Source: an uncultured Deferribacteres bacterium
GTDB taxonomy: Bacteria > Zhuqueibacterota > Zhuqueibacteria > Zhuqueibacterales > Geothermadaptataceae
DNA: 43,177 bases
Reading direction: 5' to 3'
Assembly: GCA_964014485.1 (NCBI GenBank)
Contig: CAXHAT010000049.1
Coordinates: 1 to 43,177 of the forward strand
Shown: in pieces, positions 8,066 to 34,449 of the stretch
How the letters are laid out: each line of letters begins with the position of its first letter
How positions within the stretch are numbered: the stretch's first letter is position 1
Notes under the pieces: generated by a model
What the model saw: the letters and a program-made list of their open reading frames with translations, nothing else
The model's database searches: none
What the model was told of the DNA's origin: nothing
Program-made: the position numbers and the translations under genes

Positions 8066-8641
8066 ATGATCGATGAAGTGCTCGTTTTTCTAAAAAATTA
8101 CCTGAACGCCTATCTGAATAGCAGAGCCGGAATAACTTCGGGCGTTTCCGCCGAGGACAAAGTCGTTTTTATCGACGGCGATAAAATGGATCCCATCCAC
8201 TTTAAACTTGGCGCCGTCACCGCTCTCCTTGTCAATGTTGAGGAAGAACGCGTTCTGCGACCTGCAGAACCTTACACAGCCAACTTGAGCTCGCGCAAAG
8301 TCAAAGTGCAGCCGGAAATCCGAATGAATCTCTACGTGCTTTTCGTAGCACGATTCAAAGAGTATAAAGAAGGGCTGCGTTACCTCTCCATGATCATCCA
8401 ATATTTCCAAAACCGACGCGTGCTTGAACACCAGAATGCGCCCGAGCTGAGTGATCGCATTGATCGGCTCGTCATTGAACTGAAAACCCTTCCCCTCGCC
8501 CAGCAGAACGAATTGTGGAACGCACTGAGAACGGCTTACCATCCGTCGGTTTTGTATAAAGTGAATATGGCAGTTTTCCGGGATGAAGACGCCATGGAAA
8601 TGCCTGAGATTTCGGAAACAAGGATGTCTTTAACCGAATGA
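8066..8641 (+). CDS. eCIS cap/terminator protein (Pvc16/Afp16 N-terminal domain, DUF4255)
   Basis: LLVNVEEER, NLYVLF, YKEGLRYLSMIIQYFQ, QQNELWNALRTAYHPSVLYKV; first gene of the eCIS cluster. Confidence 0.88.
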   Translation: MIDEVLVFLKNYLNAYLNSRAGITSGVSAEDKVVFIDGDKMDPIHFKLGAVTALLVNVEEERVLRPAEPYTANLSSRKVKVQPEIRMNLYVLFVARFKEYKEGLRYLSMIIQYFQNRRVLEHQNAPELSDRIDRLVIELKTLPLAQQNELWNALRTAYHPSVLYKVNMAVFRDEDAMEMPEISETRMSLTE

Positions 8642-9705
8642 AATTTGCGCCTTTCTTTAGCCTGAAATTGACGCACAGTTATTTCTCCGAGGATCAGCGC
8701 CCGAATTTCCAGATAGTCGCTCTTCCGGAAACAAATCGAGCGCTGAAAAACCACAAATGTACATTAAAGCTCGCTCCCGGTGAACTGCGCGTATTTGTTC
8801 AAGTCAAGGATGACGGCGCGCCTTTTATCCCGCTCAACCTGGACGCCACTCTCCGTTTTTTCATCATTTCCAACGATCCAATTTTTGCGCTTGTGACCGA
8901 TTTGGCTGCGTTTCAGCAAGCGCCTGCGCCGTTGTTCACCAACGCAGGCTTGGGTTCAGGGAATCCGGCGTCTCTAAAACTGATTTCCGAGCAGGCGCGT
9001 GCGAAGGAGCAATTCGAAGTTCAAAACCCGGCGCAGAGTGAAAAATTCATTTTAAGCGGACGCCCCCTGCCAGATTTGGTTGAAAATGATTTTTCCGTCG
9101 TTGGGTTAGGCGATGCATCATCGCTGACTGATTTCAATGCTTTGACAAAAACTTTTACCGTCGATTCGACAAGCGCTCAAAAAAATGACGTTTTCACTGT
9201 TGAATACGCAACGTCGCCAGAGCGGCCCAAAGGCGTTTTTGCCAAAGTCGAAATTCACAATAACGATTCTCTGCCCTCCCCTTCCGACGGACCGGGAGAA
9301 TTTCACATTGCCTTCGAGGCCAAAGCCGCGCGCTGGGCGTATTATCTTGTTTCCGACGCTTCCGGTTCAAAATTTTCAGTGCAAGATCAGGGCGCGGAAT
9401 CCGTCGCTTTCGGTGAGCAGCATCGCAGAAATCTTCAGAATGATCCGGATCCGTCTGATCCGATCGCGAACATGCTGGCCAACAAGTTCCCCGATTTGGA
9501 GCGCTGGCGTTTTCTTTCCGACGAACCTGTCGTTTGCAGCCGGAAAGTGCGGAAATCCATCCAGCTCTTGCAAGACGGCAGCCAGGCGTTGGCGGCGCTT
9601 CCCAATCCCGCGTTACAAAATTTTTCTCGTTTAAATGTCCCAGAAAACGGCGGCGTTCAAAAGGAGAACGTGCTGTATCAGATCGTCAAACACCTTACCA
9701 ATTAA
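8638..9705 (+). CDS. eCIS-associated hypothetical protein (possible cap adaptor, Alg16B-like)
   Basis: ATGA overlap with the DUF4255 gene; LKLTHSYF N-terminus, WAYYLV and LPNP motifs resemble the gene following DUF4255 in Bacteroidota-type eCIS; role inferred from position. Confidence 0.6.
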   Translation: MKFAPFFSLKLTHSYFSEDQRPNFQIVALPETNRALKNHKCTLKLAPGELRVFVQVKDDGAPFIPLNLDATLRFFIISNDPIFALVTDLAAFQQAPAPLFTNAGLGSGNPASLKLISEQARAKEQFEVQNPAQSEKFILSGRPLPDLVENDFSVVGLGDASSLTDFNALTKTFTVDSTSAQKNDVFTVEYATSPERPKGVFAKVEIHNNDSLPSPSDGPGEFHIAFEAKAARWAYYLVSDASGSKFSVQDQGAESVAFGEQHRRNLQNDPDPSDPIANMLANKFPDLERWRFLSDEPVVCSRKVRKSIQLLQDGSQALAALPNPALQNFSRLNVPENGGVQKENVLYQIVKHLTN

Positions 9706-9732
9706 CTTTCAGCCAAGAGGAGAAGAAGCATT

Positions 9733-11436
9733 ATGGCAAGTTACAAGACTCCGGGCGTGTATGTAGAAGAAATTTCAACGCTGCCGCCAAGCGTCGCACA
9801 GGTTGCGACGGCGATTCCGGCGTTTATCGGCTGCACGGTCAACGGCCCTTCAGCGGACGACGGAACTGTTGAGCCGAAAATCGCACGCGTTTCGTCAATG
9901 CTCGAATTCGAATCAATTTTTGGCAAAGCGAATCCTTCGAGTTTTACTGTAAAAACGCAGGCCGTGGAAGATCAGGAAAATGTGAGCGAAATCGTATCGG
10001 TCAATCGTAACGCGCCCAATTTCGACTATATGCTTTATTACGGCATGAACATGTTTTTCAGCAATGGCGGCGGCGCTTGTTACGTCGTCTCCGTTGGTAA
10101 TTTCAGCTCATCGCCGGGCAAGCAGCAGTTTCTGGGCGGCTTGGCGGCGGTTGAAAAGGAAGACGAGCCGACGTTGCTTGTTTTTACCGAAGCGACCAAT
10201 CTTTCGTCGGCGGATTATTACGCTGTCTGTCAGGAAGCGCTCAAACAATGCAATAAACTCGGCGACCGTTTCGCTATCCTGGATGTTTTGGATGCGGAAG
10301 GCGACGGCGCCAATTTAGGCAAAGATTTTCGTGATAACATCGGCACAAATTATCTGAAATACGGCGCGGCCTACTACCCGTCGCTCAACACAGCGTTGAA
10401 TTTTCAATATGACGAAAACGACGTTAGCATCGAATCTTCGGAAAGCTCCGGCGACGCAGTCTGGGAAAAAGCGTTTGACGACAAGACCAGCGGCGGCAAC
10501 GGCGTTGTAATCAGTTTTTCCGGCGCCGAGGGCGATACGCCGGAAGTCAAGATCATCGGCGGAACATCTGGCGACGACGTCACATTTGAGTTTTCTGACC
10601 GGCAACTAACCGTTCGAAACGCCTCCGGGAAAACCGGCGCGCAAGTTGTCGCGGCATGGAGCAACGTAACAGACGGCCAGGGTTTCGACGTTTCACCAGG
10701 CGGCGACGGCAGCGGCGAACTCAACCACACCAACAATGCTTTTGTTGCTTTAGAAGAGCAATCAGGGGCGGCTTCTTCGGAAACATTGGCTTCAATTCGC
10801 GATACAAACACGTCCCTTTACAATCAAATCAAGGCGGCGCTGACAAGCCAACGCGTCACTATGCCGCCGAGCGCAACCGTCGCCGGAGTTTATGCGAGCG
10901 TTGACAACAATCGCGGCGTTTGGAAAGCCCCCGCCAATGTGAGTCTGGCTTCGGTGATCGGGCCGACCCAAAAGATCACGCACGAACAGCAGGAAAACCT
11001 GAACATCGATCCAACGGCGGGCAAATCGATCAACGCGATTCGTGCGTTTGCAGGCAAAGGTACGCTCGTTTGGGGCGCTCGTACGCTGGCGGGCAACGAC
11101 AATGAGTGGCGCTACATTTCAGTGCGGCGGCTCTTCAACATGATCGAGGAATCGACGAAAAAATCGACGTCTTTTGCCGTTTTCGAGCCTAACGACGCAA
11201 CGACGTGGCTCAAAGTCAAAGCTATGGTTGAAAGCTATCTTTACGGACTCTGGGAACAAGGCGCTTTGGCCGGATCAACGCCGGAAGCGGCTTATTTTGT
11301 TAATGTCGGCTTGGGCAAAACAATGACCCAGCAAGACGTTCTGGAAGGCCGCATGATCGTTGAAACCGGCGTCGCGGCGGTTCGACCGGCGGAGTTCATT
11401 ATCCTGCGATTCATGCACAAACTACAAGAAGCATAG
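9733..11436 (+). CDS. Contractile tail sheath protein
   Basis: YKTPGVYVEEI, TAIPAFIG, FFSNGGGACY, GVWKAPAN, VWGARTL, WRYISVRR, FEPND, VRPAEFIILR. Confidence 0.96.
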   Translation: MASYKTPGVYVEEISTLPPSVAQVATAIPAFIGCTVNGPSADDGTVEPKIARVSSMLEFESIFGKANPSSFTVKTQAVEDQENVSEIVSVNRNAPNFDYMLYYGMNMFFSNGGGACYVVSVGNFSSSPGKQQFLGGLAAVEKEDEPTLLVFTEATNLSSADYYAVCQEALKQCNKLGDRFAILDVLDAEGDGANLGKDFRDNIGTNYLKYGAAYYPSLNTALNFQYDENDVSIESSESSGDAVWEKAFDDKTSGGNGVVISFSGAEGDTPEVKIIGGTSGDDVTFEFSDRQLTVRNASGKTGAQVVAAWSNVTDGQGFDVSPGGDGSGELNHTNNAFVALEEQSGAASSETLASIRDTNTSLYNQIKAALTSQRVTMPPSATVAGVYASVDNNRGVWKAPANVSLASVIGPTQKITHEQQENLNIDPTAGKSINAIRAFAGKGTLVWGARTLAGNDNEWRYISVRRLFNMIEESTKKSTSFAVFEPNDATTWLKVKAMVESYLYGLWEQGALAGSTPEAAYFVNVGLGKTMTQQDVLEGRMIVETGVAAVRPAEFIILRFMHKLQEA

Positions 11437-11567
11437 ATTTCTACGGAATGACGGAAATCGACTGGAGAATGTCCGATTTGCATGTTTGACGTTTCATCGA
11501 GTTGAAACATCAATCGCTCAACCTCTCCCCCGCTCCGTCATAGAAAATAAAACAATGGAGAAAAGTT

Positions 11568-12041
11568 ATGGCTGTCAGCACAGACGATATTAAGACCGCC
11601 TACCCGTTGCCGGTTTATAATTACCGCGTCGAGCTTGCGGGCGAATCAGTCGCATTTTCCGAGGTTTCCGGACTAACTGTGAATTACGCGACAACCACAT
11701 ATAAAGAAAGCCCCGTTGAAAGCGGAATGACTGGGCCGCGAGTCATGCACATGCCCGCGCAGAGCGAAGCCGTCAGCATCACTCTGAAAAAAGGCATGGT
11801 TCGAGGCAAAAGCATTCCGGTGCTTTACAAATGGATCAGCGGCACGCAAATAAACCTGATCGAAAAAAAAGACGTCTACGTCCGACTCATGGATGAAAGC
11901 GGAACGCCAGTCGTGAGCTGGAAGGTCGTTAACGCCTTTCCGACAAAGCTGGAAGCGCCCGGTTTCGACACGAATTCCAACGACGCAGCCATTGAAAGCA
12001 TGGAGCTTATGGCGGATGCTGTGTACATCGAGGAAAACTAA
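11568..12041 (+). CDS. Tail tube protein (T4 gp19-like, Afp1/5 family)
   Basis: YPLPVYNYRV, FSEVSGL, ITLKKG, WKVVNAFPTKL, AIESMEL. Confidence 0.93.
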   Translation: MAVSTDDIKTAYPLPVYNYRVELAGESVAFSEVSGLTVNYATTTYKESPVESGMTGPRVMHMPAQSEAVSITLKKGMVRGKSIPVLYKWISGTQINLIEKKDVYVRLMDESGTPVVSWKVVNAFPTKLEAPGFDTNSNDAAIESMELMADAVYIEEN

Positions 12042-12520
12042 TGGCGCAAACGATTAGCGACATTAAGTCCGCGTATCCGCTACCAGCGTACAATTATCGC
12101 GTGACTGTCCTCTCCGGCGGCGATTCGCCCGTTGTTAGTTTTGCCGAAATTTCAGGTCTGCAATTGAATTATGAACCCGTGACTTATAAACACGGCCTGA
12201 GTTTTCTAATGGGCGCTAAGATAATTCCGGGCATGAAGCAGCCGATCAAGCTTACGTTGAAACGCGGGGTGGTGAAAAGCCGCGATTTTCTGCATAGCTG
12301 GCTGCACAAAACCTACACCGAGCCGTTTTACACCGCCAAGAAAAGGGATATCGTCATCGATCTTTGCGACGAAAACGGAGATTCAGTGGTGAGATGGACG
12401 GTGCAAGGCGCAATGCCGACGCAACTGGACGCGCCTGCTTTCAACGCGGACGGAAATGAAGTTGCGATAGAATCGATGGAGTTGGTCGCCCATGGTTTGA
12501 AGGTTGACTACGATCCGTAA
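12041..12520 (+). CDS. Tail tube protein (gp19-like), second paralog
   Basis: YPLPAYNYRV, FAEISGL, LTLKRG, VAIESMEL; TAATG overlap with the previous gene. Confidence 0.92.
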   Translation: MAQTISDIKSAYPLPAYNYRVTVLSGGDSPVVSFAEISGLQLNYEPVTYKHGLSFLMGAKIIPGMKQPIKLTLKRGVVKSRDFLHSWLHKTYTEPFYTAKKRDIVIDLCDENGDSVVRWTVQGAMPTQLDAPAFNADGNEVAIESMELVAHGLKVDYDP

Positions 12521-12637
12521 CGTCGCGCTCTTTTTTGACCGCTAGTCAACAGCTTGCTGCTACTCGTTTTTTTGGCAGGACATTACTTTTGTGCATCGTC
12601 ATAATACCCCAAAATCGTATTCCAGGAGAATTTAAAA

Positions 12638-13111
12638 ATGGAGCTTCCCGGGCCGCTGCCGGTTGTGGGGAACCCGCCCCTCGGGTTTCGGTTTAGCGTC
12701 ACGTTTCTAACCGGCGGCGTTGTGCCAAACCCGATTGATATTTTGTTTAAAAAGGTTTCTGGACTCTCAACCACGGTTGAAACGGACAGCGTCGAAGAGG
12801 GCGGTCAGAGCATTTACACACAAAAGCTCCCAAAGAAAATCCAGCATGACAATTTAGTTTTGGAGCGTGGCGTCGTCGTCGGATCGCCGTTGGTCGTCGA
12901 GTTTAACGCGGCGATGTCGCTGTTCAAATTTTCGCCTTCGAGCGTTTTGGTTGTGCTTCTTGATAACACTAACCTGCCTGCCGCGAGCTGGATGTTCCTG
13001 AAGGCTTTTCCTGTAAAATGGAGCGTGTCGGATCTTGACGCCGCTTCCAATGAAGTCGTTATCGAAACGATGGAATTAAGCTATCAACGTATGACAATTC
13101 TTAGGGTTTAG
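12638..13111 (+). CDS. Tail tube protein (gp19-like, Afp5-type)
   Basis: PPLGFRFSV, FKKVSGL, EEGGQ, NLVLERG, AFPVKWSVSDL, IETMELSY. Confidence 0.92.
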   Translation: MELPGPLPVVGNPPLGFRFSVTFLTGGVVPNPIDILFKKVSGLSTTVETDSVEEGGQSIYTQKLPKKIQHDNLVLERGVVVGSPLVVEFNAAMSLFKFSPSSVLVVLLDNTNLPAASWMFLKAFPVKWSVSDLDAASNEVVIETMELSYQRMTILRV

Positions 13112-13113
13112 CT

Positions 13114-13281
13114 ATGCCGGTAGAAATCAAAGAGCTGGTAATCCGCGCTTCAACAACGTTGGACGGCGAAAACAACGGGAAATCGCAGCAAATTCAAAGC
13201 GCGCCCGCGGACAATGAAGCCATCGTTCAAGAATGCGTGAAGCAAGTTTTGAGGATTCTCAAGAAAAAGAAGGAGCGTTAG
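13114..13281 (+). CDS. Small eCIS protein (DUF5908 / Afp6-Alg6 plug-like), 55 aa, not in ORF track
   Basis: Hand translation MPVEIKELVIRASTTLDGENNGKSQQIQSAPADNEAIVQECVKQVLRILKKKKER*; fills the gap between tube and LysM genes. Confidence 0.85.
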   Translation: MPVEIKELVIRASTTLDGENNGKSQQIQSAPADNEAIVQECVKQVLRILKKKKER

Positions 13282-13995
13282 ATGGGGCTGCTTGACAGCA
13301 TGAAATTGCAGAAGCTGACGATCAAGGCTTACAAGAAACGAACGCGTTCCGCAACGGACTTGATCGGCTCCTTTGAAGCAATGTTTAATCCCGCTTCGTT
13401 TTCTCAAAAATATGAAATCGAATACGGCAAAAACCAGGGATATAACAGCACCAACAAAGAGGTCAACTACGCTCGCAGCAAGCCCCGCGACTTAAATCTC
13501 AAGCTCATTCTCGACGGCACGGGCGTAACGGAAATGGGCGTTGCGAAAATCGGCGGCGTTAAGACGGTCTCTGAGCGCGTTAAAGCGTTCATCGATCTGA
13601 CTTTCCGCATGAACGGAGATATTCATGAGCCCAATTTCCTGGTGGTCGAGTGGGGCGGCAAAGAAGACGGCGGCCTGATTTTTTCCTGCAGATTGGCGCG
13701 CGTCAACGTGACCTACACCAGTTTCAATCGGGACGGATCGCCGTTGCGCGCGGAGTTGGACGTCAACCTGATTTCGGACAAAGACGCAAAGAAACGCATG
13801 GCCGAAGACGGGAAAAATTCGCCGGATTTGACGCACCACCGCCTCGTCAAAAGTGGCGACACGCTCCCTCTGCTGACCAAAGAAGTTTACGGCACGTCGC
13901 AATATTATTTGCGCGTTGCGCAATTCAACAAGCTCGATAATTTTAGAAATCTTACGCCCGGCCAGGAATTATACTTCCCGCCGTTGGAACAATGA
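13282..13995 (+). CDS. CIS tube-initiator protein with LysM domain (Afp7-like)
   Basis: MFNPASFS, LILDGTG, HEPNFLVVEWG, FNRDGSPLRA; C-terminal LysM-like VKSGDTLPLL...LTPGQELYFP. Confidence 0.9.
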   Translation: MGLLDSMKLQKLTIKAYKKRTRSATDLIGSFEAMFNPASFSQKYEIEYGKNQGYNSTNKEVNYARSKPRDLNLKLILDGTGVTEMGVAKIGGVKTVSERVKAFIDLTFRMNGDIHEPNFLVVEWGGKEDGGLIFSCRLARVNVTYTSFNRDGSPLRAELDVNLISDKDAKKRMAEDGKNSPDLTHHRLVKSGDTLPLLTKEVYGTSQYYLRVAQFNKLDNFRNLTPGQELYFPPLEQ

Positions 13996-15635
13996 GCGTC
14001 GTTACAGCCACTATTTTGAGCGCCGGGAAAAAGATGGACCCGGTTTTTGAGCTGGTTTCCGTCGATGTGAGCCATGAAGTGAATCGAATTCCTCACGCAC
14101 AAATTGTTTTCTTGGACGGTGATGCGGCGCAACAAAAATTCACCATCAGCGATGACGCGTTTTTTGAGCCGGGCAAGGAAATTGAAATCAAGGTGCGCTA
14201 CGAAGACGCGCCGGAGAAAGAGACGACCGTGTTCAAAGGCTTGGTCGTAGGTCTGGGAGTTCAAGCGGGCGATTTTGGTTCGCTGCTCACGGTTGAACTC
14301 AAGGCCGCGGCGGTTAAATTGGCGCACGGCAGGAAAAGCGAAATTTTTCGTAAAAAAACTGATGATCAAATTATCAGCGACGTCATCGGCAACGCCGGTT
14401 TGAAAAAAGGCAAAATCGAAACAACAAAAACGAAGCACCCGGAGTTGGTGCAATATTATTGCTCAGACTGGGATTTCATACTTTCACGCGCCGACGCGCA
14501 AGGTTTGCTGATCATCGTTGAAGACGATCAGGTTTCGCTAGCCAAAATCGCCGTCACGGGTTCACCAAAATTTACCTTCGAATTCGGCCTGAGCGAAATC
14601 TATGATTTTGAAATTGAAGCTGACGCGGAGGGGCAATTACAGACGGTGGAAAGCGTGGCCTGGGACGTGAAAACGCAGAAAGTAACCAAAGCAGCCAAAG
14701 GCGCGGAGTTCAATTTATCGCAAGGCAATCTCAAGGGCGGCGCTATTGCAAAAAACCTTGGCGTCTCCCCGGTTACGCTTACAGGCTCCGGCCCGCTTGA
14801 CCCCAAGGAATTGCAAGCCTGGTCGGACGGAGCGATGACGAGAAGTCGCATGTCTCTTTTGCGAGGACGCATTGCCGTGCCCGGCGTCGGAAAAATAAAG
14901 CTTCTGGACGTCATCGAAATTGCCGGAGTCGGCAAGCGTTTCAACGGCAAAACATTGGTCACCGGCGTCCGACACCAAGTTGACCAGAACGGCTGGAAAA
15001 CGGACGTTCAGTTTGGCTTAGCCGCCGCGCCTTTTGCCGAGCGCCGGGATATTGTTGATGTTCCGGCGGCAGGCTTGCTTCCGGCGGTCAACGGTCTGCA
15101 AATCGGCGTGGTCGATAAGTTTGAAGAAGACCCTGACAAAGAGTTTCGGGTCAAAGTCATTCTTCCGGCGATTGACGAAAAGCAAGGCGCGGTCTGGGCT
15201 CGTTTGGGGGCTCCGGACGCCGGGAAGGGACGCGGCTATTTCTTCCGCCCTGAGCCGGGCGATGAAGTGATCCTCGGCTTTATCAATGACGATCCGCGCT
15301 ATGCCGTGATTCTTGGCGCACTCTACGGCTCGAAAAATACGCCGCCGGATGCTGTTTCGAAGCTCACGCAAGACAACGTGGACAAAGCGATTGTCTCCAA
15401 AACCGGCTCCGCCATCCGGTTTCTTGATGATAAAAAATCGGCGATCTTTATTGAAACGCCGGAAGCGAACAAGATTATTTTTGATGACGACGCTCAATCG
15501 ATTGAAATTGCTGATCAGCACGGCAACGAGGTCAAAATGAGCAAGGACGGCGTGGTCATTAAAAGCGCTAAAGATTTAACCATCGACGCTCGAGGCAACG
15601 TCGAAATCAAAGGTTCAAAGGTTGACATAAAATGA
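13992..15635 (+). CDS. VgrG-like spike/hub protein (Afp8-like)
   Basis: HEVNRIPHA, VQYYCSDWDF, gp5 OB-fold VWARL..AGKGRGYFFRPEPGDEVILGF..DPRY; C-terminal beta-repeat. Confidence 0.93.
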   Translation: MSVVTATILSAGKKMDPVFELVSVDVSHEVNRIPHAQIVFLDGDAAQQKFTISDDAFFEPGKEIEIKVRYEDAPEKETTVFKGLVVGLGVQAGDFGSLLTVELKAAAVKLAHGRKSEIFRKKTDDQIISDVIGNAGLKKGKIETTKTKHPELVQYYCSDWDFILSRADAQGLLIIVEDDQVSLAKIAVTGSPKFTFEFGLSEIYDFEIEADAEGQLQTVESVAWDVKTQKVTKAAKGAEFNLSQGNLKGGAIAKNLGVSPVTLTGSGPLDPKELQAWSDGAMTRSRMSLLRGRIAVPGVGKIKLLDVIEIAGVGKRFNGKTLVTGVRHQVDQNGWKTDVQFGLAAAPFAERRDIVDVPAAGLLPAVNGLQIGVVDKFEEDPDKEFRVKVILPAIDEKQGAVWARLGAPDAGKGRGYFFRPEPGDEVILGFINDDPRYAVILGALYGSKNTPPDAVSKLTQDNVDKAIVSKTGSAIRFLDDKKSAIFIETPEANKIIFDDDAQSIEIADQHGNEVKMSKDGVVIKSAKDLTIDARGNVEIKGSKVDIK

Positions 15636-16036
15636 AAGAGTCGTTTTTAGGAACCGGGTGGTCTTTTCCGCCGACGTTTACCAAGGGCGGCGCAGGCGTG
15701 GCCATGGTTTCAGACGTCGAGGATATTCAGCAGAGCTTGCAAATTTTGCTTTCCACCCGCCTCGGCGAACGGGTGATGCAAGATGAATTCGGCTGCGATT
15801 TGCAGCACTTACTTTTCGAAGAGATTGACCAGGGTTTGGTCAACACCATCACCGCAATGGTCACCGACGCGATCCTTTACCATGAGCCGCGCATTAAATT
15901 GAATGAACTTGACGTTTCACAAGACGCCGATGAACCGGGCTTGCTGCTGATTAGTATCGATTATACTGTTCGCAGTAAGAACTCACGCTTTAATATGGTG
16001 TACCCGTTTTACATCAACGAAGCAGTTGCACCGTGA
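15632..16036 (+). CDS. Baseplate wedge/sheath initiator, gp25-like (Afp9)
   Basis: FLGTGWSFPP, DIQQSLQILLSTRLGERVM, HEPRI, NMVYPFY. Confidence 0.93.
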   Translation: MKESFLGTGWSFPPTFTKGGAGVAMVSDVEDIQQSLQILLSTRLGERVMQDEFGCDLQHLLFEEIDQGLVNTITAMVTDAILYHEPRIKLNELDVSQDADEPGLLLISIDYTVRSKNSRFNMVYPFYINEAVAP

Positions 16037-16049
16037 GCAACATTGAAAA

Positions 16050-16484
16050 ATGCCTGATTTTATTTTGATTGAAGGCGACAAAGCGAATTTTCTGCCTAAT
16101 TTCGGCGCTGCGGTCGTGGTGGTCAAACCCGGCGATTTGAAGGGCAGCGGGCCGGGAACGCTGAACGGCAAAAAACTTTGCGTTGACGGCGATGAAAAAG
16201 ACGTCTCCGTGCCCGGCTGCACATACATGACGCCGCAGTATTCCATTCCCGGAACGGGAACGCTCAAAATCAACGCACTCGCCGGAAATCAGAAAGCGAA
16301 AAAAACGAATACCGGCGGCAAAGCCGTGCTTTTGAAAGGCGGGCAATTTACGGCGAAATTCGAAGTACAAAGTCCGGCAAAACAGCCTCCGCCGGGGCCG
16401 GGCTCGCCCATACCTGATCCGTCGCCGCAGTACTCGGGCAATGGGATGTTCATGACGACAAACACAAAATTTCAAGGGAGTTAG
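16050..16484 (+). CDS. CIS spike tip protein (Afp10/Pvc10 PAAR-like)
   Basis: Small Gly/Pro-rich beta protein (KKLCVDGDE, YSIPGTGTLKI, VLLKG) next to spike and gp25. Confidence 0.75.
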   Translation: MPDFILIEGDKANFLPNFGAAVVVVKPGDLKGSGPGTLNGKKLCVDGDEKDVSVPGCTYMTPQYSIPGTGTLKINALAGNQKAKKTNTGGKAVLLKGGQFTAKFEVQSPAKQPPPGPGSPIPDPSPQYSGNGMFMTTNTKFQGS

Positions 16485-16493
16485 AGGTACATT

Positions 16494-17963: not shown

Positions 17964-17973
17964 CTTCTACTAT

Positions 17974-18153
17974 AACGTTAAGTCCGCCTCAGAACGGTTG
18001 TGCAAGACACACTGAAGTGTGAACTACAAACGACAGGGCGTACTTCTACCCTGAACGTCAAAAAAGCCCTGTCGTTTGTAGTTCAGCTTTCAAGCTGTTT
18101 TTCAAGTGTCATGCGTGTGAAATGTGCTGGTTTTTTGAGGCTAACTTAACGTT
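17974..18153. mobile_element. MITE/REP-composite element
   Basis: Terminal inverted repeats aacgttaagtccgcctca / tgaggctaacttaacgtt (16/18); internal perfect 20-bp stem tgaactacaaacgacagggc (18020-18039) / gccctgtcgtttgtagttca (18066-18085). Confidence 0.7.
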
Positions 18154-18221
18154 GTATTACAAGGCAGAACGGAAGTAACTGGTGTAAGCCCGGCAGGGTT
18201 AGAATTATTCAGAACAAGCAC

Positions 18222-18519
18222 TAACCCGACATTCCGCACACAAGAATTGGAAATGGAAATAATTTCTTCATCTCATTAACACCGTCCTTCAGGGCGGTGA
18301 CAAGAGCGTCCTTCCACCCTTCTCCCCCGCCGCGCAAGCTCGGCGTGGGAAAAGAAAAGTGTGATTTTACCAAAACCCCGGCTTAAAAGCCGGGGCTAAT
18401 GAGAGGCAAAATCTCATCAGGCGCAAAAGAAGTCTTGCAGCCGCACTAAAATTGTCGAAAAAGCGCTTTTTCAACAAATGATTTCAAATGCGACGATTGA
18501 CGTGCGGAATGTCGGCTAA
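18222..18519. mobile_element. Second MITE/REP-composite element
   Basis: Terminal inverted repeats ccgacattccgcac (18226-18239) / gtgcggaatgtcgg (18502-18515); internal hairpins caccgtccttcagggcggtg and ccccggcttaaaagccgggg bracketed by tctcatta/taatgaga. Confidence 0.7.
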
Positions 18520-18546
18520 CCTTTAAAACCTTGTAAATAAACCCAA

Positions 18547-24703: not shown

Positions 24704-24721
24704 CAGACTCCTTCTCGGAGT

Positions 24722-27224: not shown

Positions 27225-29240
27225 ATGAGCGCTACGACGCATCTTCAAACCCGCGATTCGCGAGATAGAATGATAGACTCTTTGAAGCTCGGGGAGTCCT
27301 ATCCGCTGCGCGATTTGCCTGTGCCGAACGAAAAGCTAAAAGTGCCGCATGAAACGCCCGCGACAATTTCCATTCAGCATAGCCAGCAAAACGTTTTGTA
27401 CCAACTCTACCAATCCGGCGCTGTTGTTGAACGAATAATTGACGGCCAAAAAACGCCGGTGCAGGCGGCGGGCGACGGCGGAGCGATTCAGCTTGAGACC
27501 GACAAAATTATCGAAGACGTTACTTTCGATATTCTTGCTGTGAAACAAGCCACTTCCCGCCAAGCATGGCTGCATCAAACGGCGACAGTCAAGGTCGGCT
27601 TAAATACAGCGCTGCCTGCGCGAATCCGGTTATTTGGTCTCGATCTCGCATTTGAAACGAAACTGACGGAAGGCGTTGTCCAAGGCGACTTGAGGCAGGA
27701 ATTTCTCAATCGCGAAGTTTTTGTTGCCGAACATGCGCGCATTTTCAGCGAAAACCAGCGTTGGCGGATTGTACAAGAAAACGGTCTAAGCTACGTCATT
27801 CGCCTGGAATCCGATCGACTTGGCGTTTACGCCTTCCTGGACCAGACCGCCGAGAGTCCAGGTGACGAAGCGCCGCGTTTGATCAATTACGGCGCGAAGG
27901 TGGAAGTGCAAATTGACAATAGCCAGGAAGGCGTGGTTTATCAACTTGTCTCAATCGAAAACGGCCAGGAAAGCGTTCTTTCCGAGTCTGACATGATTGG
28001 AGACTTGCACAATATTACGTTGGTCTCAAAGCGAATTTTTGAAGATGTCGACGTTTATATTCGTGCGACTAAAAACTTCGGTTCAGGGGATCGGGCGGAG
28101 CAAAAAGAACTGCTCGACGCAATTTTGCCGCTCAAGGTGCGCGCCAACTCCAAGACATTGGTCGCCGTCGATCACGAACCGATTTTCGATTTCGACGCCT
28201 CGGGCACGATCAAAATTCCCGATTCGCAAAGCAGCGTGAATTACCAGGTTTTTATGCGCGAGATTTCCGACCGCGAGTTTGTCCACGGTTCCGCGCCTGA
28301 AGAATCTGTCATCAAAACGCCGGTCGAAAACCAGCCGGACGTGCAGGTGGAAAAGCCCGCAAGGACGGACGTTTGGTCAAAAAACGATTTTACTGCCGCT
28401 GGAGAGCCCAAGCAAGGCAACGACGGCGACTTGCGGCTGTCTTTGCCAGATTTGCAAGCGGATCACTTGGTCATCGTAAAGGCAAGCAAAGACCACGATT
28501 CCGGCGGCGCGGTTATTTCTTCCGCCTTGCAATTAGAGCAAGCGGTCGTTGTGCTTGTCCGGCCAAATCCAATGCCGAGCCTGAGACTTGAGACCGAAAT
28601 TGTCGATGGCAAAACCGGCGGGCAATTGCATATTTTTGACGGCGATCCCGGAATTTTCTATCAATTTAGCGCCGCTCCTGAAAACAAGAAAATTGAGCCG
28701 CCGGTCTATTTTCACAAACGCGACGAAATCAATCCTGCTCATAACAAAGGCTTGTCGCAGCTCAAAATCGGCGTGGATTTTGTCGTGCCGCGCACAGCCT
28801 CGCCGGCGGAAACAAATGAAAGTCCGACCCAGACAGCCCCCGAACCGCCCGTTCTCGAAACAGAAAAGTTGGCCGCCAATACGGAATTGCACATTAAGGC
28901 GATGAAAGCGCAGACGCTCGTCGAGAACGACTTGAGCAAAACTGCAATCATCGCCGAACTACCTGAAATCGCTCTCCAGGACGATGAAATCGAGACCGGC
29001 GCGACAACGAAGATTCTGGTGAAGTCCAGCGTAATTGGAGAAAAATATGAGCCGTTTCTCAACGGGCAATCATTTAAACGCGCCCGCAACGGCAACGGCG
29101 CTGATCTTTCCTTCAACACCGATCCAATAACCGAAGATACGGAATTCGAAGTGCGCGTCACACAAATCGCCCCGCCCGGCTTCCCGGTGATGCGTATTGT
29201 TAAGGTTATTGCAAAAATTCGTTTGGAAGACCAGACGTAA
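27225..29240 (+). CDS. eCIS accessory protein with ~5 Ig-like beta repeats
   Basis: Recurrent motif SQxxVxYQ...G(N/D)GxxLxL...xxDxxxxVxA; within eCIS operon; no signal peptide. Confidence 0.7.
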   Translation: MSATTHLQTRDSRDRMIDSLKLGESYPLRDLPVPNEKLKVPHETPATISIQHSQQNVLYQLYQSGAVVERIIDGQKTPVQAAGDGGAIQLETDKIIEDVTFDILAVKQATSRQAWLHQTATVKVGLNTALPARIRLFGLDLAFETKLTEGVVQGDLRQEFLNREVFVAEHARIFSENQRWRIVQENGLSYVIRLESDRLGVYAFLDQTAESPGDEAPRLINYGAKVEVQIDNSQEGVVYQLVSIENGQESVLSESDMIGDLHNITLVSKRIFEDVDVYIRATKNFGSGDRAEQKELLDAILPLKVRANSKTLVAVDHEPIFDFDASGTIKIPDSQSSVNYQVFMREISDREFVHGSAPEESVIKTPVENQPDVQVEKPARTDVWSKNDFTAAGEPKQGNDGDLRLSLPDLQADHLVIVKASKDHDSGGAVISSALQLEQAVVVLVRPNPMPSLRLETEIVDGKTGGQLHIFDGDPGIFYQFSAAPENKKIEPPVYFHKRDEINPAHNKGLSQLKIGVDFVVPRTASPAETNESPTQTAPEPPVLETEKLAANTELHIKAMKAQTLVENDLSKTAIIAELPEIALQDDEIETGATTKILVKSSVIGEKYEPFLNGQSFKRARNGNGADLSFNTDPITEDTEFEVRVTQIAPPGFPVMRIVKVIAKIRLEDQT

Positions 29241-29255
29241 CGCACTTTTTAAATA

Positions 29256-31034
29256 ATGACGATGAACTCGCAAAGACATGTCATAAAGCGCCAGGTGATT
29301 GAATTGAGCATTCCCGGAAATGCTCAGGCGCACGAATTGCAAAACGAAGTGAGCCGCATCTATCGGCGGAAAATAATTCCGCTTATTGACCAGTTTTGTA
29401 GCGAGTTGAGCGCCCCGGATCGATTGCATCGAATTGATTCGCTCGAGATTGATCTCGGCGCTGTTGATGCAAATCGTCTTGAATCTGATTTATTGCTCAG
29501 CCTGAACGACGCCCTGCCCAAGGCGCTGCAAGCCCAAATTGCCGCCCAAGAAAAGCCGGACAATGCTTCTCAAACTCCTCAGGCAAAATTGCAATCTCAA
29601 CTGGAGTTGCTCTATTTCTTTCTCCGCACCGGGGCCCTTCCCTGGTGGGCCGACGCTTCGGAACCGCGATTGTTGGAAAATTGTCTGGATTTTTTAATCC
29701 TTAATTCGCCGAGACGACTGACAGAAGCTTTGCGATCTATGGCGCGGGAAGGCAATGTTTTTCAAAGATTCGCTAACCATTTTTCTGACGATTCAATCTC
29801 ACGCGTCGTCCAGCTCATGGCCCCGGCGCTCAAACCGCCGAAAGGCGTCAACGCGGCGGAGTTATTGAGGATACTGCAAGAATCGAAAATCGGAATCGCT
29901 CGGGACAAATTCTGGCCAACCCTGCTTCGCGTCGCCGGTCTCGAAGGCCGGTCAGAAGTTTCCACGAAGGCGCTCACGCAGTCGGCGCTGACGCATGTCG
30001 CCGCCGTTAGCGGCGCAACTTATCACTCCCTAGTCACTTCCGCCGCTGATACGCTTAAAAGCTTGAAAATGGAGATCGGAGAATCCCTTCAGAACGTTTT
30101 ATTTGATCTCGCCCAATCCGCTGGCTCCGATGATAAAAAATCAGGGCAAGAACCTGTCGTTCAAACTTCATCTAAAACTTTCAGAGAACGGCTCTTGGCA
30201 GACTCATCGGAAATCCTTTCCGAATTTTGGGCGATTTTGATGGAAACGGTTCAGAATTTTCCAAACCAGATTCGAAATCCAATCCTGAATTTACTCAAAG
30301 AGTCCGAAACACCGCACAAAAAAACGGAGCGAATTTTAGCGTTGCTGGCAGAGTCGCTGCCAGCCGTTTCACTGCCGTCGGAAAAGCGCCGCCAAATGAT
30401 CGCCGCATTGCAGGAACTAATTGCAGCCAAAATTCGCCCGGAAGAATCCCGTGCGGTTATCCAGGCGATTGAGCCAGATTCGGATCATCAAGGCGGAGAA
30501 GTCGACCCGCTCGATGATTTGGAGTTCAGCGACGGCGATGAATTATATGTTTCGAACGCCGGATTGGTCATTCTTGCGCCGTTCTTGAGCCGCTTTTTTA
30601 GTCGCGTGGATTATCTTGAAAAAGGGCAATTTAAAGACGAGAAATCACAACAGCGCGCCGCCGGACTCCTGCAACTCCTCGCGTCTGGAGAATCTGAATT
30701 TCCAGAGTACTTGCTGCCGCTCAACAAAGCGCTTTGCGGGATTCATTTAACAGACCTCGTCCTTTTTGAGTCGATCCTGACAGATTTGGAAGCAAAGGAA
30801 TGTGAAAAATTTCTTGAAGCGATTATTGCACAAGCGCCTATTTTGAAGGAAATGTCGATTGACGGACTGCGCGGAACTTTTCTCTTACGAGAAGGCGTTT
30901 TGCGCACGCGTGACGGCGCCTGGCTCCTGCAAGTTGAAAGAAAAACGCACGACATCGTTCTGGATCGTTTTCCCTGGAGTTGGGAGTGGATTAAATTGCC
31001 GTGGATGGAAAAAACACTCCGCGTGGAATGGTGA
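29256..31034 (+). CDS. Contractile injection system tape measure protein (Afp14-like)
   Basis: HVIKRQVIEL, IDSLEIDLG, FLRTGALPWW; C-terminal YVSNAGLVILAPFL, LPLNKALCG, LRGTFLLREG, DRFPWS..IKLPWM..VEW. Confidence 0.9.
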   Translation: MTMNSQRHVIKRQVIELSIPGNAQAHELQNEVSRIYRRKIIPLIDQFCSELSAPDRLHRIDSLEIDLGAVDANRLESDLLLSLNDALPKALQAQIAAQEKPDNASQTPQAKLQSQLELLYFFLRTGALPWWADASEPRLLENCLDFLILNSPRRLTEALRSMAREGNVFQRFANHFSDDSISRVVQLMAPALKPPKGVNAAELLRILQESKIGIARDKFWPTLLRVAGLEGRSEVSTKALTQSALTHVAAVSGATYHSLVTSAADTLKSLKMEIGESLQNVLFDLAQSAGSDDKKSGQEPVVQTSSKTFRERLLADSSEILSEFWAILMETVQNFPNQIRNPILNLLKESETPHKKTERILALLAESLPAVSLPSEKRRQMIAALQELIAAKIRPEESRAVIQAIEPDSDHQGGEVDPLDDLEFSDGDELYVSNAGLVILAPFLSRFFSRVDYLEKGQFKDEKSQQRAAGLLQLLASGESEFPEYLLPLNKALCGIHLTDLVLFESILTDLEAKECEKFLEAIIAQAPILKEMSIDGLRGTFLLREGVLRTRDGAWLLQVERKTHDIVLDRFPWSWEWIKLPWMEKTLRVEW

Positions 31035-32383
31035 TGGAAAACAGAATTCAACAAAATGCGCGCGATCTGGAACAAGAACTGGCATGGCTGGCGCGTGTTC
31101 TCGACGCTCGTTTCAAGCTTTACTTTGGCCAGGAATGCGAACACCAACACATTTCCGAAATTTCGCCGCCTGATCTGAAAGACTCGAAATCACAGTATGC
31201 GCAATTCACACGGCATTACAAATTCGGGTTTGCTGAGCGCCTGGCAGTAATTCTCAGCCTGACGCCCCACATTCGCCCGCAATTATTGGACGTTTTTTTC
31301 GTTAAGAACAAAACCTTCGATCGCAAATTCACGGAATTTGGCGGCGTACGCTCTAACTCGGAGGGTGATTTTCACCCAACCGGCGAAACGCTGCTTTTTG
31401 TTTTGGCCGCCAACGATCTCGAAGCCCGTTTTGAATTGCAAGCGTTGTTTGATCCGGAGCATTTTTTCACCAAGCATAACATTCTCAGGCTTGAACCTTC
31501 TCCCACTGATTTTTCACCGCTGAAGTCGCCGTTGAAAATCTCTGAAGAATACCTAAGCTTGTTCACCATTGGACATTCGCACCGCCCGACTTTCGGCGCC
31601 AATTTTCCAGCGCAATTTATTGAGACGAGACGGACTTGGGATGACTTGGTGCTGCATCCCGGCACTTTGGAACAAATTGACGAAATCAGAACGTGGGTTG
31701 AGCACAACGAAACGCTGATGCGCGACTGGGAAATGGCGCCCAAGCTGCGCCCCGGCTATCGCAGTCTATTTTACGGCCCGCCCGGAACCGGGAAAACCAT
31801 GACGGCCTGTCTTTTGGGAAAATCGACCGGACGCGAAGTGTACAAGATCGATTTATCGATGGTCGTCTCGAAATATATTGGCGAGACGGAGAAGAATCTG
31901 GCCAAAGTATTCGATCAGGCGCAGCACAAACACTGGATTTTGTTTTTCGACGAAGCGGACGCCTTGTTTGGCAAACGCACACTGACAAAAGACGCGCACG
32001 ACCGCTACGCCAACCAGGAAGTTTCTTTCCTATTGCAGCGCATCGAAACGTTTGACGGCATCGCGATTCTTTCCTCAAACTTGCGCGAAAACCTTGACGA
32101 CGCTTTTGCGCGCCGCTTCGAGTCGCTCATTTATTTTCCGATACCTAATCAAGAAGATCGCTTGCGCCTTTGGAAGCAGGGATTCTCGCCCAAAATAGAA
32201 CTCGAATCATCGCTTGATCTCGAAAAGATCGCGCAAGATTACGAACTTTCCGGCGGATCGATTATGAACGTGGTCAGCTATGCTTCGTTGCAAGCGCTCA
32301 AAAACGGGGCTTCCGCGGTGGCGGCCAAAGATGTTTTACGCGGGATTCGTCGGGAGTTCGCCAAGGAAGGCAGAGAAATATAA
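31034..32383 (+). CDS. AAA+ ATPase (Afp15/Pvc15-like)
   Basis: Walker A GPPGTGKT, Walker B LFFDEADALFGKR, DRYANQEVSFLLQRIE; start moved to ATG 31034 (TGATG overlap). Confidence 0.94.
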   Translation: MENRIQQNARDLEQELAWLARVLDARFKLYFGQECEHQHISEISPPDLKDSKSQYAQFTRHYKFGFAERLAVILSLTPHIRPQLLDVFFVKNKTFDRKFTEFGGVRSNSEGDFHPTGETLLFVLAANDLEARFELQALFDPEHFFTKHNILRLEPSPTDFSPLKSPLKISEEYLSLFTIGHSHRPTFGANFPAQFIETRRTWDDLVLHPGTLEQIDEIRTWVEHNETLMRDWEMAPKLRPGYRSLFYGPPGTGKTMTACLLGKSTGREVYKIDLSMVVSKYIGETEKNLAKVFDQAQHKHWILFFDEADALFGKRTLTKDAHDRYANQEVSFLLQRIETFDGIAILSSNLRENLDDAFARRFESLIYFPIPNQEDRLRLWKQGFSPKIELESSLDLEKIAQDYELSGGSIMNVVSYASLQALKNGASAVAAKDVLRGIRREFAKEGREI

Positions 32384-32445
32384 ACCTTGCTCATTTGGCA
32401 AGATCGTTTTAAAAAACTGGCATGAAAAAACGACGGTAAAGGCTT

Positions 32446-34131
32446 ATGAATCGTACATCAAAAGAACAAAAATCTAGATGTCTGGCAACGGATGCGATAC
32501 GCTCAAACAAATCCGCAAGCCACAATGCCGCTGCAATCGCTCCGCCAAAATACAACCTGGAATTTGCAGACGCATCTGTTCAAAACGGTTTATCGGCGGT
32601 TCAAATGCAAGGTCAAGAAACGAAGGGCATCAGCGGTTTTGAGTGCGTTACTGTTGAGCATGCATTTGTTCAGGGCAAATCTGCGGCACAGACGAAGGAC
32701 GATTCCGAGAACATTCATAAAATCGCGGCGAAGGGCGTTCAGGGTACGGGCGGAAAGCTGCCGCATTTGAATCAAATCCAGAAGTCTTTTGGGCGTTTTA
32801 ACGTGAGTCAAGTTCAAGCCTACACTGGTCGGCAGAGCCGGGAATCGGCAAGCGCAATGGGCGCTCAGGCTTATGCGTCGGGCAACAAAGTGGCGTTTAG
32901 AAGCGCTAACCCTAATTTGGCGACAGCGGCGCATGAAGCCGCACATGTTGTACAACAACGTCGAGGTGTACATTTGAAGTACGGCGTCGGCAAAGTCGGA
33001 GACGTCTATGAACAACATGCAGATAGTGTGGCTGATTTGGTGGTTCGAGGTCACAGTGCAGAACCGTTGCTAGCGCGTGCACCGAATCAGCCGGTTTCTC
33101 CACAAGGCGATCGGGCTGTTCAAAAAACGCCGATACAATTTTTGACAGGTACGCCGGTTTATATTCCAAAATCCCAAACTGCACAACTCGCTGGAATTCC
33201 TGATAAGGGCAGCGGTATTTATCCGAACAAGGTCTTTCATTACAACCAAGCCAATCAAGTCACAGACAATATGGTTTCATCAACTCTGTCGCTTCCCGAT
33301 GTCCCGGGGTACGCCACAAAGCCAGGACACCAAGCGGCGCGTCAAAGGGACCTCAAAGAATACATTCTTCAAATTGACCATATCGTTCCAAAATCAAAAG
33401 GAGGCGGCAATACAAACAAGAATGGGCAGATATTGAACGCCAAGGAAAACAGAGACAAGTCATCTAACTATCCTCCAGATGATATATCAGGCGCGAGTGG
33501 CGTCAAAATATTTGTTCCAAAGCATAACCTGGTCCTGGATACAAACGCCCCTAAACAAGCGGTTTCGCTCCCCAATGGACTTAAATTGCCTACGCCAGTA
33601 AAGCTAAAATTATGGCAAGCAGATGACTATGGGTTAAATTATTGGAGAAATGTTCCCGCCCACACGAACTATCCATATAAGTTTAAATTGACAGTAGAGC
33701 AGACAATTAAGCTTGGCGATACTTGGCAGATAACCAAAGACATGCTACCATCCGGTCTTCCCAAGAACCTTATGATTTCTGCTGAACAGGCAGAAGCTTT
33801 AGGCTTCGAAAAAAAGTCCGGGAAACTTATCGCGAACACATTTATTCCTGTTGATCAAACAATCACTTTTACGGCGAATCAGGTTAAATTTATAATTGAT
33901 AACAACTTAAGCGCCAAGGGAGAACTTTCTTTTTATCCTCGAAGCGTCGACAGCTCTACGGCGCCAAATGTTGACCTGACAATCACCAAGGAGCAAATTA
34001 AAAAATTTGATCCTGACAGTACGGTAACCTTGGCTCAAAATACACAACTTAATAAAAACCTGTGGGTAGATCGTGATATTGCCTTTAATCTGGGGCTTGC
34101 TCCTGAAATGAAATACCCAATATTAGGATAG
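32446..34131 (+). CDS. DUF4157 (eCIS core, HExxH) domain protein with HNH nuclease motif; candidate eCIS effector
   Basis: LPHLNQIQKSFG..GAQAYASGNKVAF..AAHEAAHVVQQ..YEQHADSVAD; HNH-like IDHIVPKSKGGGNTNKNGQILNAKENRDK (~33373-33459). Confidence 0.85.
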   Translation: MNRTSKEQKSRCLATDAIRSNKSASHNAAAIAPPKYNLEFADASVQNGLSAVQMQGQETKGISGFECVTVEHAFVQGKSAAQTKDDSENIHKIAAKGVQGTGGKLPHLNQIQKSFGRFNVSQVQAYTGRQSRESASAMGAQAYASGNKVAFRSANPNLATAAHEAAHVVQQRRGVHLKYGVGKVGDVYEQHADSVADLVVRGHSAEPLLARAPNQPVSPQGDRAVQKTPIQFLTGTPVYIPKSQTAQLAGIPDKGSGIYPNKVFHYNQANQVTDNMVSSTLSLPDVPGYATKPGHQAARQRDLKEYILQIDHIVPKSKGGGNTNKNGQILNAKENRDKSSNYPPDDISGASGVKIFVPKHNLVLDTNAPKQAVSLPNGLKLPTPVKLKLWQADDYGLNYWRNVPAHTNYPYKFKLTVEQTIKLGDTWQITKDMLPSGLPKNLMISAEQAEALGFEKKSGKLIANTFIPVDQTITFTANQVKFIIDNNLSAKGELSFYPRSVDSSTAPNVDLTITKEQIKKFDPDSTVTLAQNTQLNKNLWVDRDIAFNLGLAPEMKYPILG

Positions 34132-34149
34132 TAGTGTGTTAGCCAGGAA

Positions 34150-34183
34150 ACTTGAAACTGATGTTGCAACATCAGTTTCAAGT
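34150..34183. repeat. Perfect 34-bp palindrome
   Basis: acttgaaactgatgttg|caacatcagtttcaagt, no loop; 19 bp after the effector stop. Confidence 0.9.
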
Positions 34184-34218
34184 GAAAGATTAAAAATCAC
34201 AACTCAAGCAAAAATCCA

Positions 34219-34449
34219 ATGAAAGACAAACTTCAAGAACGCCTGAAAGAACTCAAAGCGGAATTCGAAGCTGGACAAAAAATGATGGCGGATTTGCGGG
34301 AAAAGCAGAGAAACCTCCAGGAAACGTTGCTGCGAATCAGTGGAGCGATTCAGGTTCTTGAAGAAGAGCTGTCCGCTGACAAGGACGGGACGGAGACAAA
34401 GCCTCTCCAGGCGACCAAAAACCAGCAAAGCTCCGCCGAGCTTCCGTAG
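34219..34449 (+). CDS. Small coiled-coil protein at the eCIS locus end
   Basis: 76 aa heptad pattern, LQETLLRISGAIQVLEEEL; same strand as eCIS genes. Confidence 0.75.
   Translation: MKDKLQERLKELKAEFEAGQKMMADLREKQRNLQETLLRISGAIQVLEEELSADKDGTETKPLQATKNQQSSAELP

Follow-up and report, generated by a model that had tools for sequence, protein, structure and literature searches.

The contig CAXHAT010000049.1, from the genome of an uncultured Deferribacteres bacterium (assembly GCA_964014485.1; Zhuqueibacterota in GTDB), encodes a contractile injection system (CIS) with a gene for an HtrA-type protease in the middle of the cluster. We consider, with a probability of about 0.8, that the cluster is a complete CIS of the AlgoCIS/MAC/tCIS branch (clade Ib), that it was acquired horizontally and that HtrA is not part of the machine. 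The type of system has already been described, and the protease gene is a one-off insertion, not the mark of a new kind of system. The window, meaning the whole stretch of DNA analysed, was the entire contig of 43,177 bases, genes past both of its ends being beyond the reach of the scan. The genome has 8.4 Mb in 465 contigs and is 97% complete by tool estimate.

Gene content and affinities of the cluster

Nineteen CIS reading frames, together with HtrA, follow one another in the same direction at 8066-34131 (+). The core parts, from cap to ATPase, are all encoded at 8066-32383 (+) and are followed by a DUF4157-HNH cargo gene, with strong family scores. Pfam families were recognized in 14 of the 18 larger cluster open reading frames (ORFs), the four without a match being 8638-9705, 22995-24608, 24957-27068 and 27225-29240. 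Families specific for extracellular CIS (eCIS) were CIS_TMP, CIS_tube, CIS_spike_tip, Pvc16_N and eCIS_core, to which the AAA+ ATPase is added. All 19 CIS frames are open and full length relative to their relatives. Every part that a previous sequence-only reading had named in this co-oriented cluster was recovered on the + strand, at its stated coordinates.

That reading had also seen no capsid, portal, terminase or type VI secretion system (T6SS) membrane complex, and had set linked head genes beforehand as evidence against an eCIS. We looked for such genes and found none on the 43-kb contig: Pfam gave no capsid, portal, terminase or T6SS membrane families in the 31 larger window ORFs, and PHROGs gave no head, portal or terminase genes among the ten window proteins scanned. 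Integrase, lysis and replication genes (Pfam, PHROGs) and tRNAs were likewise not found on the contig. The gene set is that of a full eCIS without head genes.

The sheath, spike, Alg11 and Alg12 proteins were closest to those of AlgoCIS, the Anabaena tCIS and SalCIS (E 1e-112 to 1e-139), three systems within clade Ib or close to it, with PVC and Afp far more distant. The gene order is that of clade Ib (AlgoCIS/MAC/tCIS), first described in Bacteroidota and cyanobacteria, in support of the Bacteroidota-type order previously suggested. With AlgoCIS of Algoriphagus machipongonensis (PDB 7adz/7aeb/7aef; PMC8894135) the cluster shares the order from cap to ATPase, a short cap followed by a gene at the cap-adaptor position, a DUF5908 plug, a LysM tube initiator, a long Alg11 that aligns over the cage domain, Alg12, an Ig-type protein encoded after Alg12 and before the tape measure, and a DUF4157 cargo with a disordered N-terminus. 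There are also differences. An Algoriphagus-type spike is only ~38% identical, and the spike tree assigns it to the other main clade. Alg11 has 1466 aa here vs 1050 aa in AlgoCIS, with ~370 extra N-terminal residues, whereas Alg12 has only 703 aa compared with 933. Alg11 and Alg12 are separated by an additional fibre gene, the Ig-repeat protein shows no detectable sequence similarity to solved chains, a single HNH cargo gene stands in place of Cgo1 and Cgo2, and HtrA and repeats are inserted behind the tip gene.

The true nearest relatives are uncharacterised clade Ib loci in metagenome-assembled genomes (MAGs), for example locus L002 of an Anaerolineales MAG and the cluster of the kin genome G140. 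The first has 41-88% identity over cap to Alg11, and there Alg11 directly follows the tip, without HtrA. The second has 33-76% identity over cap to ATPase, in the same gene order including the Ig-repeat protein, again without HtrA. The order is identical in L002, L004, L008, L010, L012 and G140. A quick IQ-TREE tree of spikes was built from 78 rows, the window and 77 relatives of at least 90% coverage. The window grouped there with G140 and the Anaerolineales MAG; the three belong to a clade of 14 rows (SH-aLRT 100) that mixes Chloroflexota, Acidobacteriota, Pseudomonadota, Bacteroidota and SAR324. The sister clade holds Algoriphagus-type and Bacteroidales systems, plus the clusters of the kin genomes G141 and G092. 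CIS_TMP was found in only 4 of the 167 genomes of the phylum, and these fall in two different spike clades. Together, this rarity and distribution indicate that the cluster was acquired horizontally, at least twice in the phylum, and that it has moved between phyla. CISs are known from MAGs across 14 bacterial phyla (PMC12210884). The present cluster adds one complete clade Ib system, among 4/167 species genomes with CIS_TMP, to a poorly sampled uncultured phylum, and leaves the understanding of such systems unchanged.

Three further CIS loci, belonging to another lineage, occur in the same genome: C3:77741-93037, C12:33-28785, and C117:174-11547 with C160:122-18241, the last two of which look like halves of one locus. 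Their ATPase carries an N-terminal winged-helix domain, their spike is divided between GPD and base_V genes, and Tail_P2_I is present. The sheaths and ATPases of these loci are ~43% and ~45% identical to those of the window, respectively. Among the tube genes on C160, at 2368-5328, there is a 986-aa thermolysin-type (M4) peptidase with FTP/PepSY propeptide domains, a second protease gene inside a CIS cluster of this genome.

The HtrA gene and the repeats behind the tip gene

The gene at 16494-17963 (+) encodes an HtrA/DegP-type serine protease with a signal-peptide-like N-terminus (Pfam Trypsin_2, E 1.1e-35; PDZ_2 in two stretches). It scored 371 bits against TIGR02037, under the 416-bit cut-off, and its catalytic motifs TNAHV109, DLAVL157 and GNSGG228 are intact. 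HtrA residues 12-30 are the only strongly hydrophobic segment encoded in the cluster. The gene starts 9 nt past the stop codon of the tip gene, and 583 non-coding bases lie behind it.

None of the 80 spike-related genome loci, of which many are short or cut, had an HtrA homologue, nor did any of the 55 tip-related metagenome loci or the three kin clusters (G140, G141 and G092). The tip gene is usually followed by Alg11 instead, which begins ~20-65 nt past the tip in nine of the ten genome loci with a tip match, and 6-158 nt past it in 36 of the 46 metagenome loci having at least 300 nt downstream; the remaining ten gave no Alg11 N-terminal match by the criterion used. Orthologues of HtrA, with 53-60% identity, occur in three other families of the same class, whereas its own family and order have only paralogues of ~40% identity. 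None of the 12 orthologue loci examined had a CIS gene within ~9 kb. In a large protein database the top identity was at most 61%, and the named neighbours belong to several phyla, which does not single out a donor. A literature search, covering main texts and not the supplements that may list such loci, gave no paper linking HtrA or KSB1 with contractile injection systems.

Because it is absent from all related loci examined and lies beside mobile repeats, HtrA looks like a strain-specific insertion. It is very probably a passenger and not a conserved part of the machine. The sequence-only reading had proposed that HtrA, a lectin-like fibre, an Ig-repeat protein and an HNH cargo, next to an alginate operon, may together form an undescribed variant. 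This did not hold, since HtrA recurs in none of the related loci and the other three are known variable modules of eCIS; swappable fibres and DUF4157-toxin fusions have been documented as such (PMC12923769, PMC8213781, PMC11297309).

Two kinds of repeats were recognized in the gap between HtrA and Alg11. The first, at 18004-18102, resembles a repetitive extragenic palindromic (REP) element, a short palindromic multi-copy repeat with ~75 blastn matches on both strands, genome-wide. It contains a hairpin with a T run (18084-18097) that scored as terminator-like. The second, at 18226-18515, is a 290-bp element like a miniature inverted-repeat transposable element (MITE). Its ends, CCGACATTCCGCAC and GTGCGGAATGTCGG, form 14-bp terminal inverted repeats, with a 5-bp duplication, CTAAC, on either flank. 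The MITE-like repeat occurs at ~38 other places in the genome, in 18 full-length copies (76-93% identity) plus many partial ones. Many copies are at contig ends, so the element probably breaks the assembly. Depth was 68-211 within the MITE and ~5 outside. Short contigs from public DNA runs of one study bridge the tip-HtrA junction, the HtrA stop codon, and the junctions of the MITE with its left flank and with Alg11. Among public RNA runs, none was listed with 15600-19600. A search for sigma-70-type sites, which is uninformative for this kind of organism, gave none in 15900-18800.

In G140 (contig C3 of that genome) a different insert, of 516 nt and with long inverted repeats, occupies the same spacer between tip and Alg11. 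This spacer, which holds ~2 kb of inserted DNA in the window, seems to accept insertions, which could be of practical use in engineering.

Proposed mode of action and its alternatives

The particle would be built in the cytoplasm, upon a baseplate composed of spike, tip, plug, LysM initiator, gp25 and the Alg11 and Alg12 wedges, with the long Alg11 caging the spike. The tape measure would set the length of tube and sheath, and the cap and cap adaptor would close the distal end. The AAA+ ATPase is predicted to thread the DUF4157-HNH protein into the tube lumen via its disordered N-terminus. In AlgoCIS, according to a preprint, such an N-terminus is the cargo loading signal, loading depends on Alg15, and length is set by the tape measure. 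By analogy, we infer that the particle is released, through lysis of the cell, and injects a nuclease: two fibre-type proteins, one with an ILEI/PANDER lectin-like region and one an Ig-like chain, would bind the target, and contraction of the sheath would drive the cargo into it. We read the system as a released particle because the anchors of tCIS are missing and two fibre-type proteins with binding folds are present. HtrA and the 583 bp of repeat-laden DNA would have been inserted in the short tip-Alg11 spacer in this lineage only.

Several points weigh against this reading. The system is known from its genes alone, and its extracellular mode is predicted only from the missing anchors; clade Ib also includes cell-bound systems (T6SSiv and tCIS; PMC8894135, PMC8894136), whose anchoring parts are only partly known. 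The call of a cap-adaptor-like protein at 8638-9705 is based on one match of E 1.5e-3 and on position, and the Ig-repeat protein is linked to Alg19/Cis19 by position and general fold only. The interior of the MITE is not bridged by any short contig piece, and it is therefore the assemblies that connect the HtrA side to the Alg11 side. Transcription of the second half of the cluster may be cut off by the REP hairpin, with its T run, and by the MITE. Finally, the HtrA start is preceded by GAGG and, with the 9-nt spacing from the tip gene, HtrA would share a transcript with the operon's first half, which leaves some room for a role in the system.

A possible cut in transcription leads to a reading in which the locus is decaying: HtrA, the hairpin repeat and the MITE would have split the operon, and the half from baseplate to cargo would no longer be expressed with the sheath-tube half. 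The 583 bp of repeats with their terminator-like hairpin fit such a split, and the three other CIS loci of the genome could make the window locus dispensable. We nevertheless hold decay to be rather unlikely. The CIS frames are all open and full length (19/19), the catalytic and Walker motifs are intact, G140 tolerates its 516-nt palindromic insert in the same spacer, and a MITE can also supply a promoter.

With respect to release, the system could instead be cell-bound, acting inside the producer or at its surface like T6SSiv or tCIS. Both modes occur in clade Ib, and the spike, Alg11/Cis11, Alg12/Cis12 and sheath proteins score as high against the thylakoid-anchored tCIS of Anabaena PCC 7120 (PDB 7b5h; PMC8894136) as against the AlgoCIS chains. 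As in tCIS, a fibre-like gene lies between Cis11 and Cis12, at the position of Cis13, and its product matches Cis13 weakly at the N-terminus (E 1e-3). However, the C-terminal transmembrane helix of Cis13 is absent, the maximum hydropathy of the fibre over 19 residues being 0.78, and so is the Cis12 extension (residues 610-1100; PMC8894136). No CIS protein of the cluster reaches a hydropathy of 1.6 over 19 residues, i.e., none has a transmembrane-like segment. The fibre has a globular lectin-type C-terminus, nothing in the host hints at thylakoids, and free particles agree better with the presence of two fibre-type proteins that have binding-type folds. A cell-bound system is thus decidedly unlikely.

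HtrA itself could be a recruited accessory, a co-expressed exported protease that aids release, processes a component such as the linker of the LysM initiator, or matures the cargo. Its position 9 nt past the tip stop on the same strand, its intact catalytic motifs and its two PDZ domains agree with this. In addition, the Alg7 linker of AlgoCIS is reported as cleaved by a protease that is not known (PMC8894135), the C160 locus has its secreted-type M4 peptidase gene among the tube genes, and proteases make up ~2% of predicted eCIS toxins (PMC11297309). Against these stand the lack of conservation in the 80 genome, 55 metagenome and 3 kin loci, the orthologues, which are ordinary chromosomal genes without CIS neighbours (12/12 loci), and the mobile repeats flanking the gene. 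The signal-peptide-like N-terminus suggests a periplasmic location, whereas the assembly of CIS particles is cytoplasmic; HtrA lacks the disordered N-terminus of loaded cargo, and the literature search gave no paper on a link between HtrA and CIS. We regard recruitment as very unlikely. A more specific form, in which HtrA loosens the envelope or processes a baseplate part while the MITE provides a promoter for the half with baseplate, fibre and cargo, seems even less probable; if true, this would be the first protease-coupled, two-unit eCIS operon.

A prophage tail module or R-type tailocin is hardly credible: the structural genes share ancestry with phage tails, but the contig has no capsid, portal, terminase, integrase, lysis or tRNA genes, and the eCIS-specific families and the AAA+ ATPase are present.

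Components of the system, candidate cargo and flanking genes

The components described here are encoded on the + strand. The cap or tail terminator (8066-8641; 191 aa) is Afp16/Alg16A-like (Pfam Pvc16_N, E 1.5e-29), and is short and single-domain, as is Alg16A of AlgoCIS (197 aa; PMC8894135). The next gene (8638-9705), absent from the part list of the sequence-only reading, encodes a cap-adaptor-like protein of 355 aa at the Alg16B/Cis16B position. It had no Pfam, NCBIfam or PHROG match and one weak structure-chain match, to the SalCis16b cap (9r9n_C, E 1.5e-3, residues 7-89), and is kept at the same position, with 25-41% identity, in L002, L004, L008, L010, L012 and G140.

The sheath (9733-11436; 567 aa; Pfam Phage_sheath_1 and 1C) had as its best solved relatives AlgoCIS 7adz (E 2.5e-139), tCIS All3325 (1.1e-133) and SalCIS (1e-112). 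Three tube-family genes follow at 11568-12041, 12041-12520 and 12638-13111 (Pfam Phage_T4_gp19, E 4e-32, 6e-28 and 5e-31, respectively). Between them and the LysM initiator, as in clade Ib or AlgoCIS-like CIS, sits the Afp6/Alg6-like plug (13114-13281; 55 aa), which matched DUF5908 over its full length (55/55, E 1.1e-17) and is 42-56% identical in the closest related loci. The Afp7/Alg7-like tube initiator (13282-13995; Pfam CIS_tube, E 2.7e-46) has a weak LysM match at its C-terminus (residues 186-234).

The central spike (13992-15635) is VgrG/Afp8-like (Pfam Phage_base_V and Phage_GPD), its solved relatives being tCIS All3320 (E 3.5e-119), AlgoCIS 7aef_q (2e-118) and SalCIS (2.9e-112). It is followed by a gp25-like sheath initiator (15632-16036; Pfam GPW_gp25, E 6.4e-25) and a PAAR-like spike tip at the Afp10/Alg10 position (16050-16484; Pfam CIS_spike_tip, E 1.3e-55), with up to 92% identity in metagenome loci.

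Behind the insertion, the 1466-aa baseplate wedge with a cage extension (18547-22947) is Afp11/Alg11/Cis11-like, with Pfam Baseplate_J at residues 1182-1358. Its residues 630-1433 align to residues 257-1035 of AlgoCIS Alg11 (7aeb_G, E 1.6e-123), and it matched tCIS All3317 with E 1.2e-119. The cage domain IV of Alg11 comprises residues 278-643 (PMC8894135). The alignment spans this domain, so the cage extension is present, and the protein probably forms a cage around the spike. The length of the N-terminus, ~370 residues beyond AlgoCIS Alg11, is common to the closest loci. In the translation, the first ~630 residues (18547-20440) show four loosely repeated 'EW...' helical motifs.

The second wedge, Afp12/Alg12/Cis12-like (24957-27068; 703 aa), is a short form recognized from solved chains (tCIS All3315, E 3.6e-121; AlgoCIS Alg12, E 3.8e-112). 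The alignment stops near query residue 608 and target residues 605-610, so the protein lacks most of the long lateral or extension part that Alg12 (933 aa) and Cis12 (1335 aa) have.

The candidate tail fibre at the tCIS Cis13 position (22995-24608; 537 aa) combines a conserved anchor at the N-terminus with a lectin-type region at the C-terminus. Its N-terminal ~130-190 aa are 50-67% identical to proteins that end in Peptidase_S74, Collar, C1q, Laminin_G_3 or ILEI. Such sharing of the N-terminus between proteins with different C-terminal domains is typical of modular fibres, and seems to fit the concept of eCIS tail fibres as modular proteins with conserved N-terminal anchors, eBAP1-5 (PMC12923769). 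Profile matches were a Bdellovibrio fibre (8ond, E 1.1e-17) and, weakly and N-terminally, tCIS All3316, i.e., Cis13. The fibre model had a moderate mean predicted local distance difference test (pLDDT) score of 69.5. Its best-modelled part, residues ~255-420, matched the stem domain of POMGnT1 and FAM3C/ILEI (target-normalised TM 0.62-0.68, E 1.7e-5 to 4e-4). In the predicted structure, the C-terminal region thus resembles an ILEI/PANDER-type lectin-like fold such as the carbohydrate-binding POMGnT1 stem, in agreement with the lectin-like fibre that had been suggested.

The protein at the Alg19/Cis19 position (27225-29240; 671 aa) is a tandem Ig/FN3-like protein, a candidate second fibre or crown. 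The Ig repeats seen in its sequence were borne out by an AlphaFold model (mean pLDDT 86.1) with a chain of all-beta Ig/FN3-like domains. Structure searches (Foldseek, VIA) gave only generic Ig/FN3/macroglobulin matches (best Z 9.0), with no AlgoCIS or tCIS chain listed. Neither the single sequence nor a 53-row profile matched a solved chain up to E 1. None of its 76 homologues carries a function name, and a 34% identical orthologue lies at the same position in G140. Alg19 of AlgoCIS, encoded after Alg12, is a downward fibre with Ig-like folds (PMC8894135).

The Afp14-like tape measure (29256-31034; 592 aa; Pfam CIS_TMP, E 4.6e-111) is followed by the Afp15/Alg15-like AAA+ ATPase (31001-32383; Pfam AAA, E 2.7e-27), in which Walker A (GPPGTGKT259) and Walker B (ILFFDE313) are both present.

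The last cluster gene (32446-34131) encodes the candidate cargo, with DUF4157 and HNH domains as previously noted (Pfam eCIS_core, E 5.3e-13; HNH_4, 1.2e-5; HNH, 2.5e-4) and a PHROG HNH endonuclease match. The protein has a low-complexity N-terminus, DUF4157 with HEAAH163, an HNH motif at residues 302-343 and a C-terminal stretch of ~210 aa, an architecture equal to that of AlgoCIS Cgo1/Cgo2. The HEAAH motif and the DH...N of HNH are intact, and by a crude count 60% of residues 1-105 are disorder-promoting. In another database the gene call begins at residue 54 (window 32446-32605), which makes both the true start and the extent of the disordered N-terminus uncertain. The C-terminal ~210-217 residues had no PDB sequence match and no usable Atlas match. 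By analogy, the cargo is a predicted nuclease that would be loaded by its disordered N-terminus. DUF4157 is an eCIS marker linked to 3' toxins (PMC8213781), and nucleases are a known class (~3%) of the predicted DUF4157-linked eCIS toxins (EATs), the HNH type not being named in the main-text passages (PMC8213781, PMC11297309). No immunity gene was evident for the HNH cargo. The lectin-like fibre head, the Ig-repeat family at the Alg19 position and the cargo are parts of possible interest for retargeting of particles.

A 76-aa coiled-coil ORF (34219-34449, +), with only weak coiled-coil Pfam matches, is at most a candidate member of the cluster. A 64% identical copy lies on contig C3 (from 65691 or 65718 to 65918) of the same genome, ~3 kb beyond another CIS locus and near a serine recombinase gene.

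Both flanks are ordinary. The upstream flank, on the opposite strand, encodes an alginate lyase, a cupin, an SDR protein, a TRAP transporter and a GntR regulator. The alginate genes reported beside the cluster are real, not part of a new variant and simply neighbours. In an empty-site check, the alginate lyase had an orthologue in one of the 28 other genomes of the order, there on a 4.6-kb contig. Downstream there are a LytTR two-component pair, a HAD hydrolase and a ThuA/PKD protein tagged for the type IX secretion system (T9SS). The T9SS sorting domain would fit the KSB1/Calditrichota-like host proposed from sequence alone. Just past the cluster, at 34795-35308, lies a broken hybrid two-component regulator, with a receiver-domain fragment and an AraC-type helix-turn-helix domain (E 8.5e-19) in different frames. 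The CIS island may have landed in a polysaccharide-utilisation region. An Acido-Lenti-1 RNA motif was found at 38668-38713 (-), between the kinase and regulator genes of the LytTR system, with 40.2 bits (gathering score 37).

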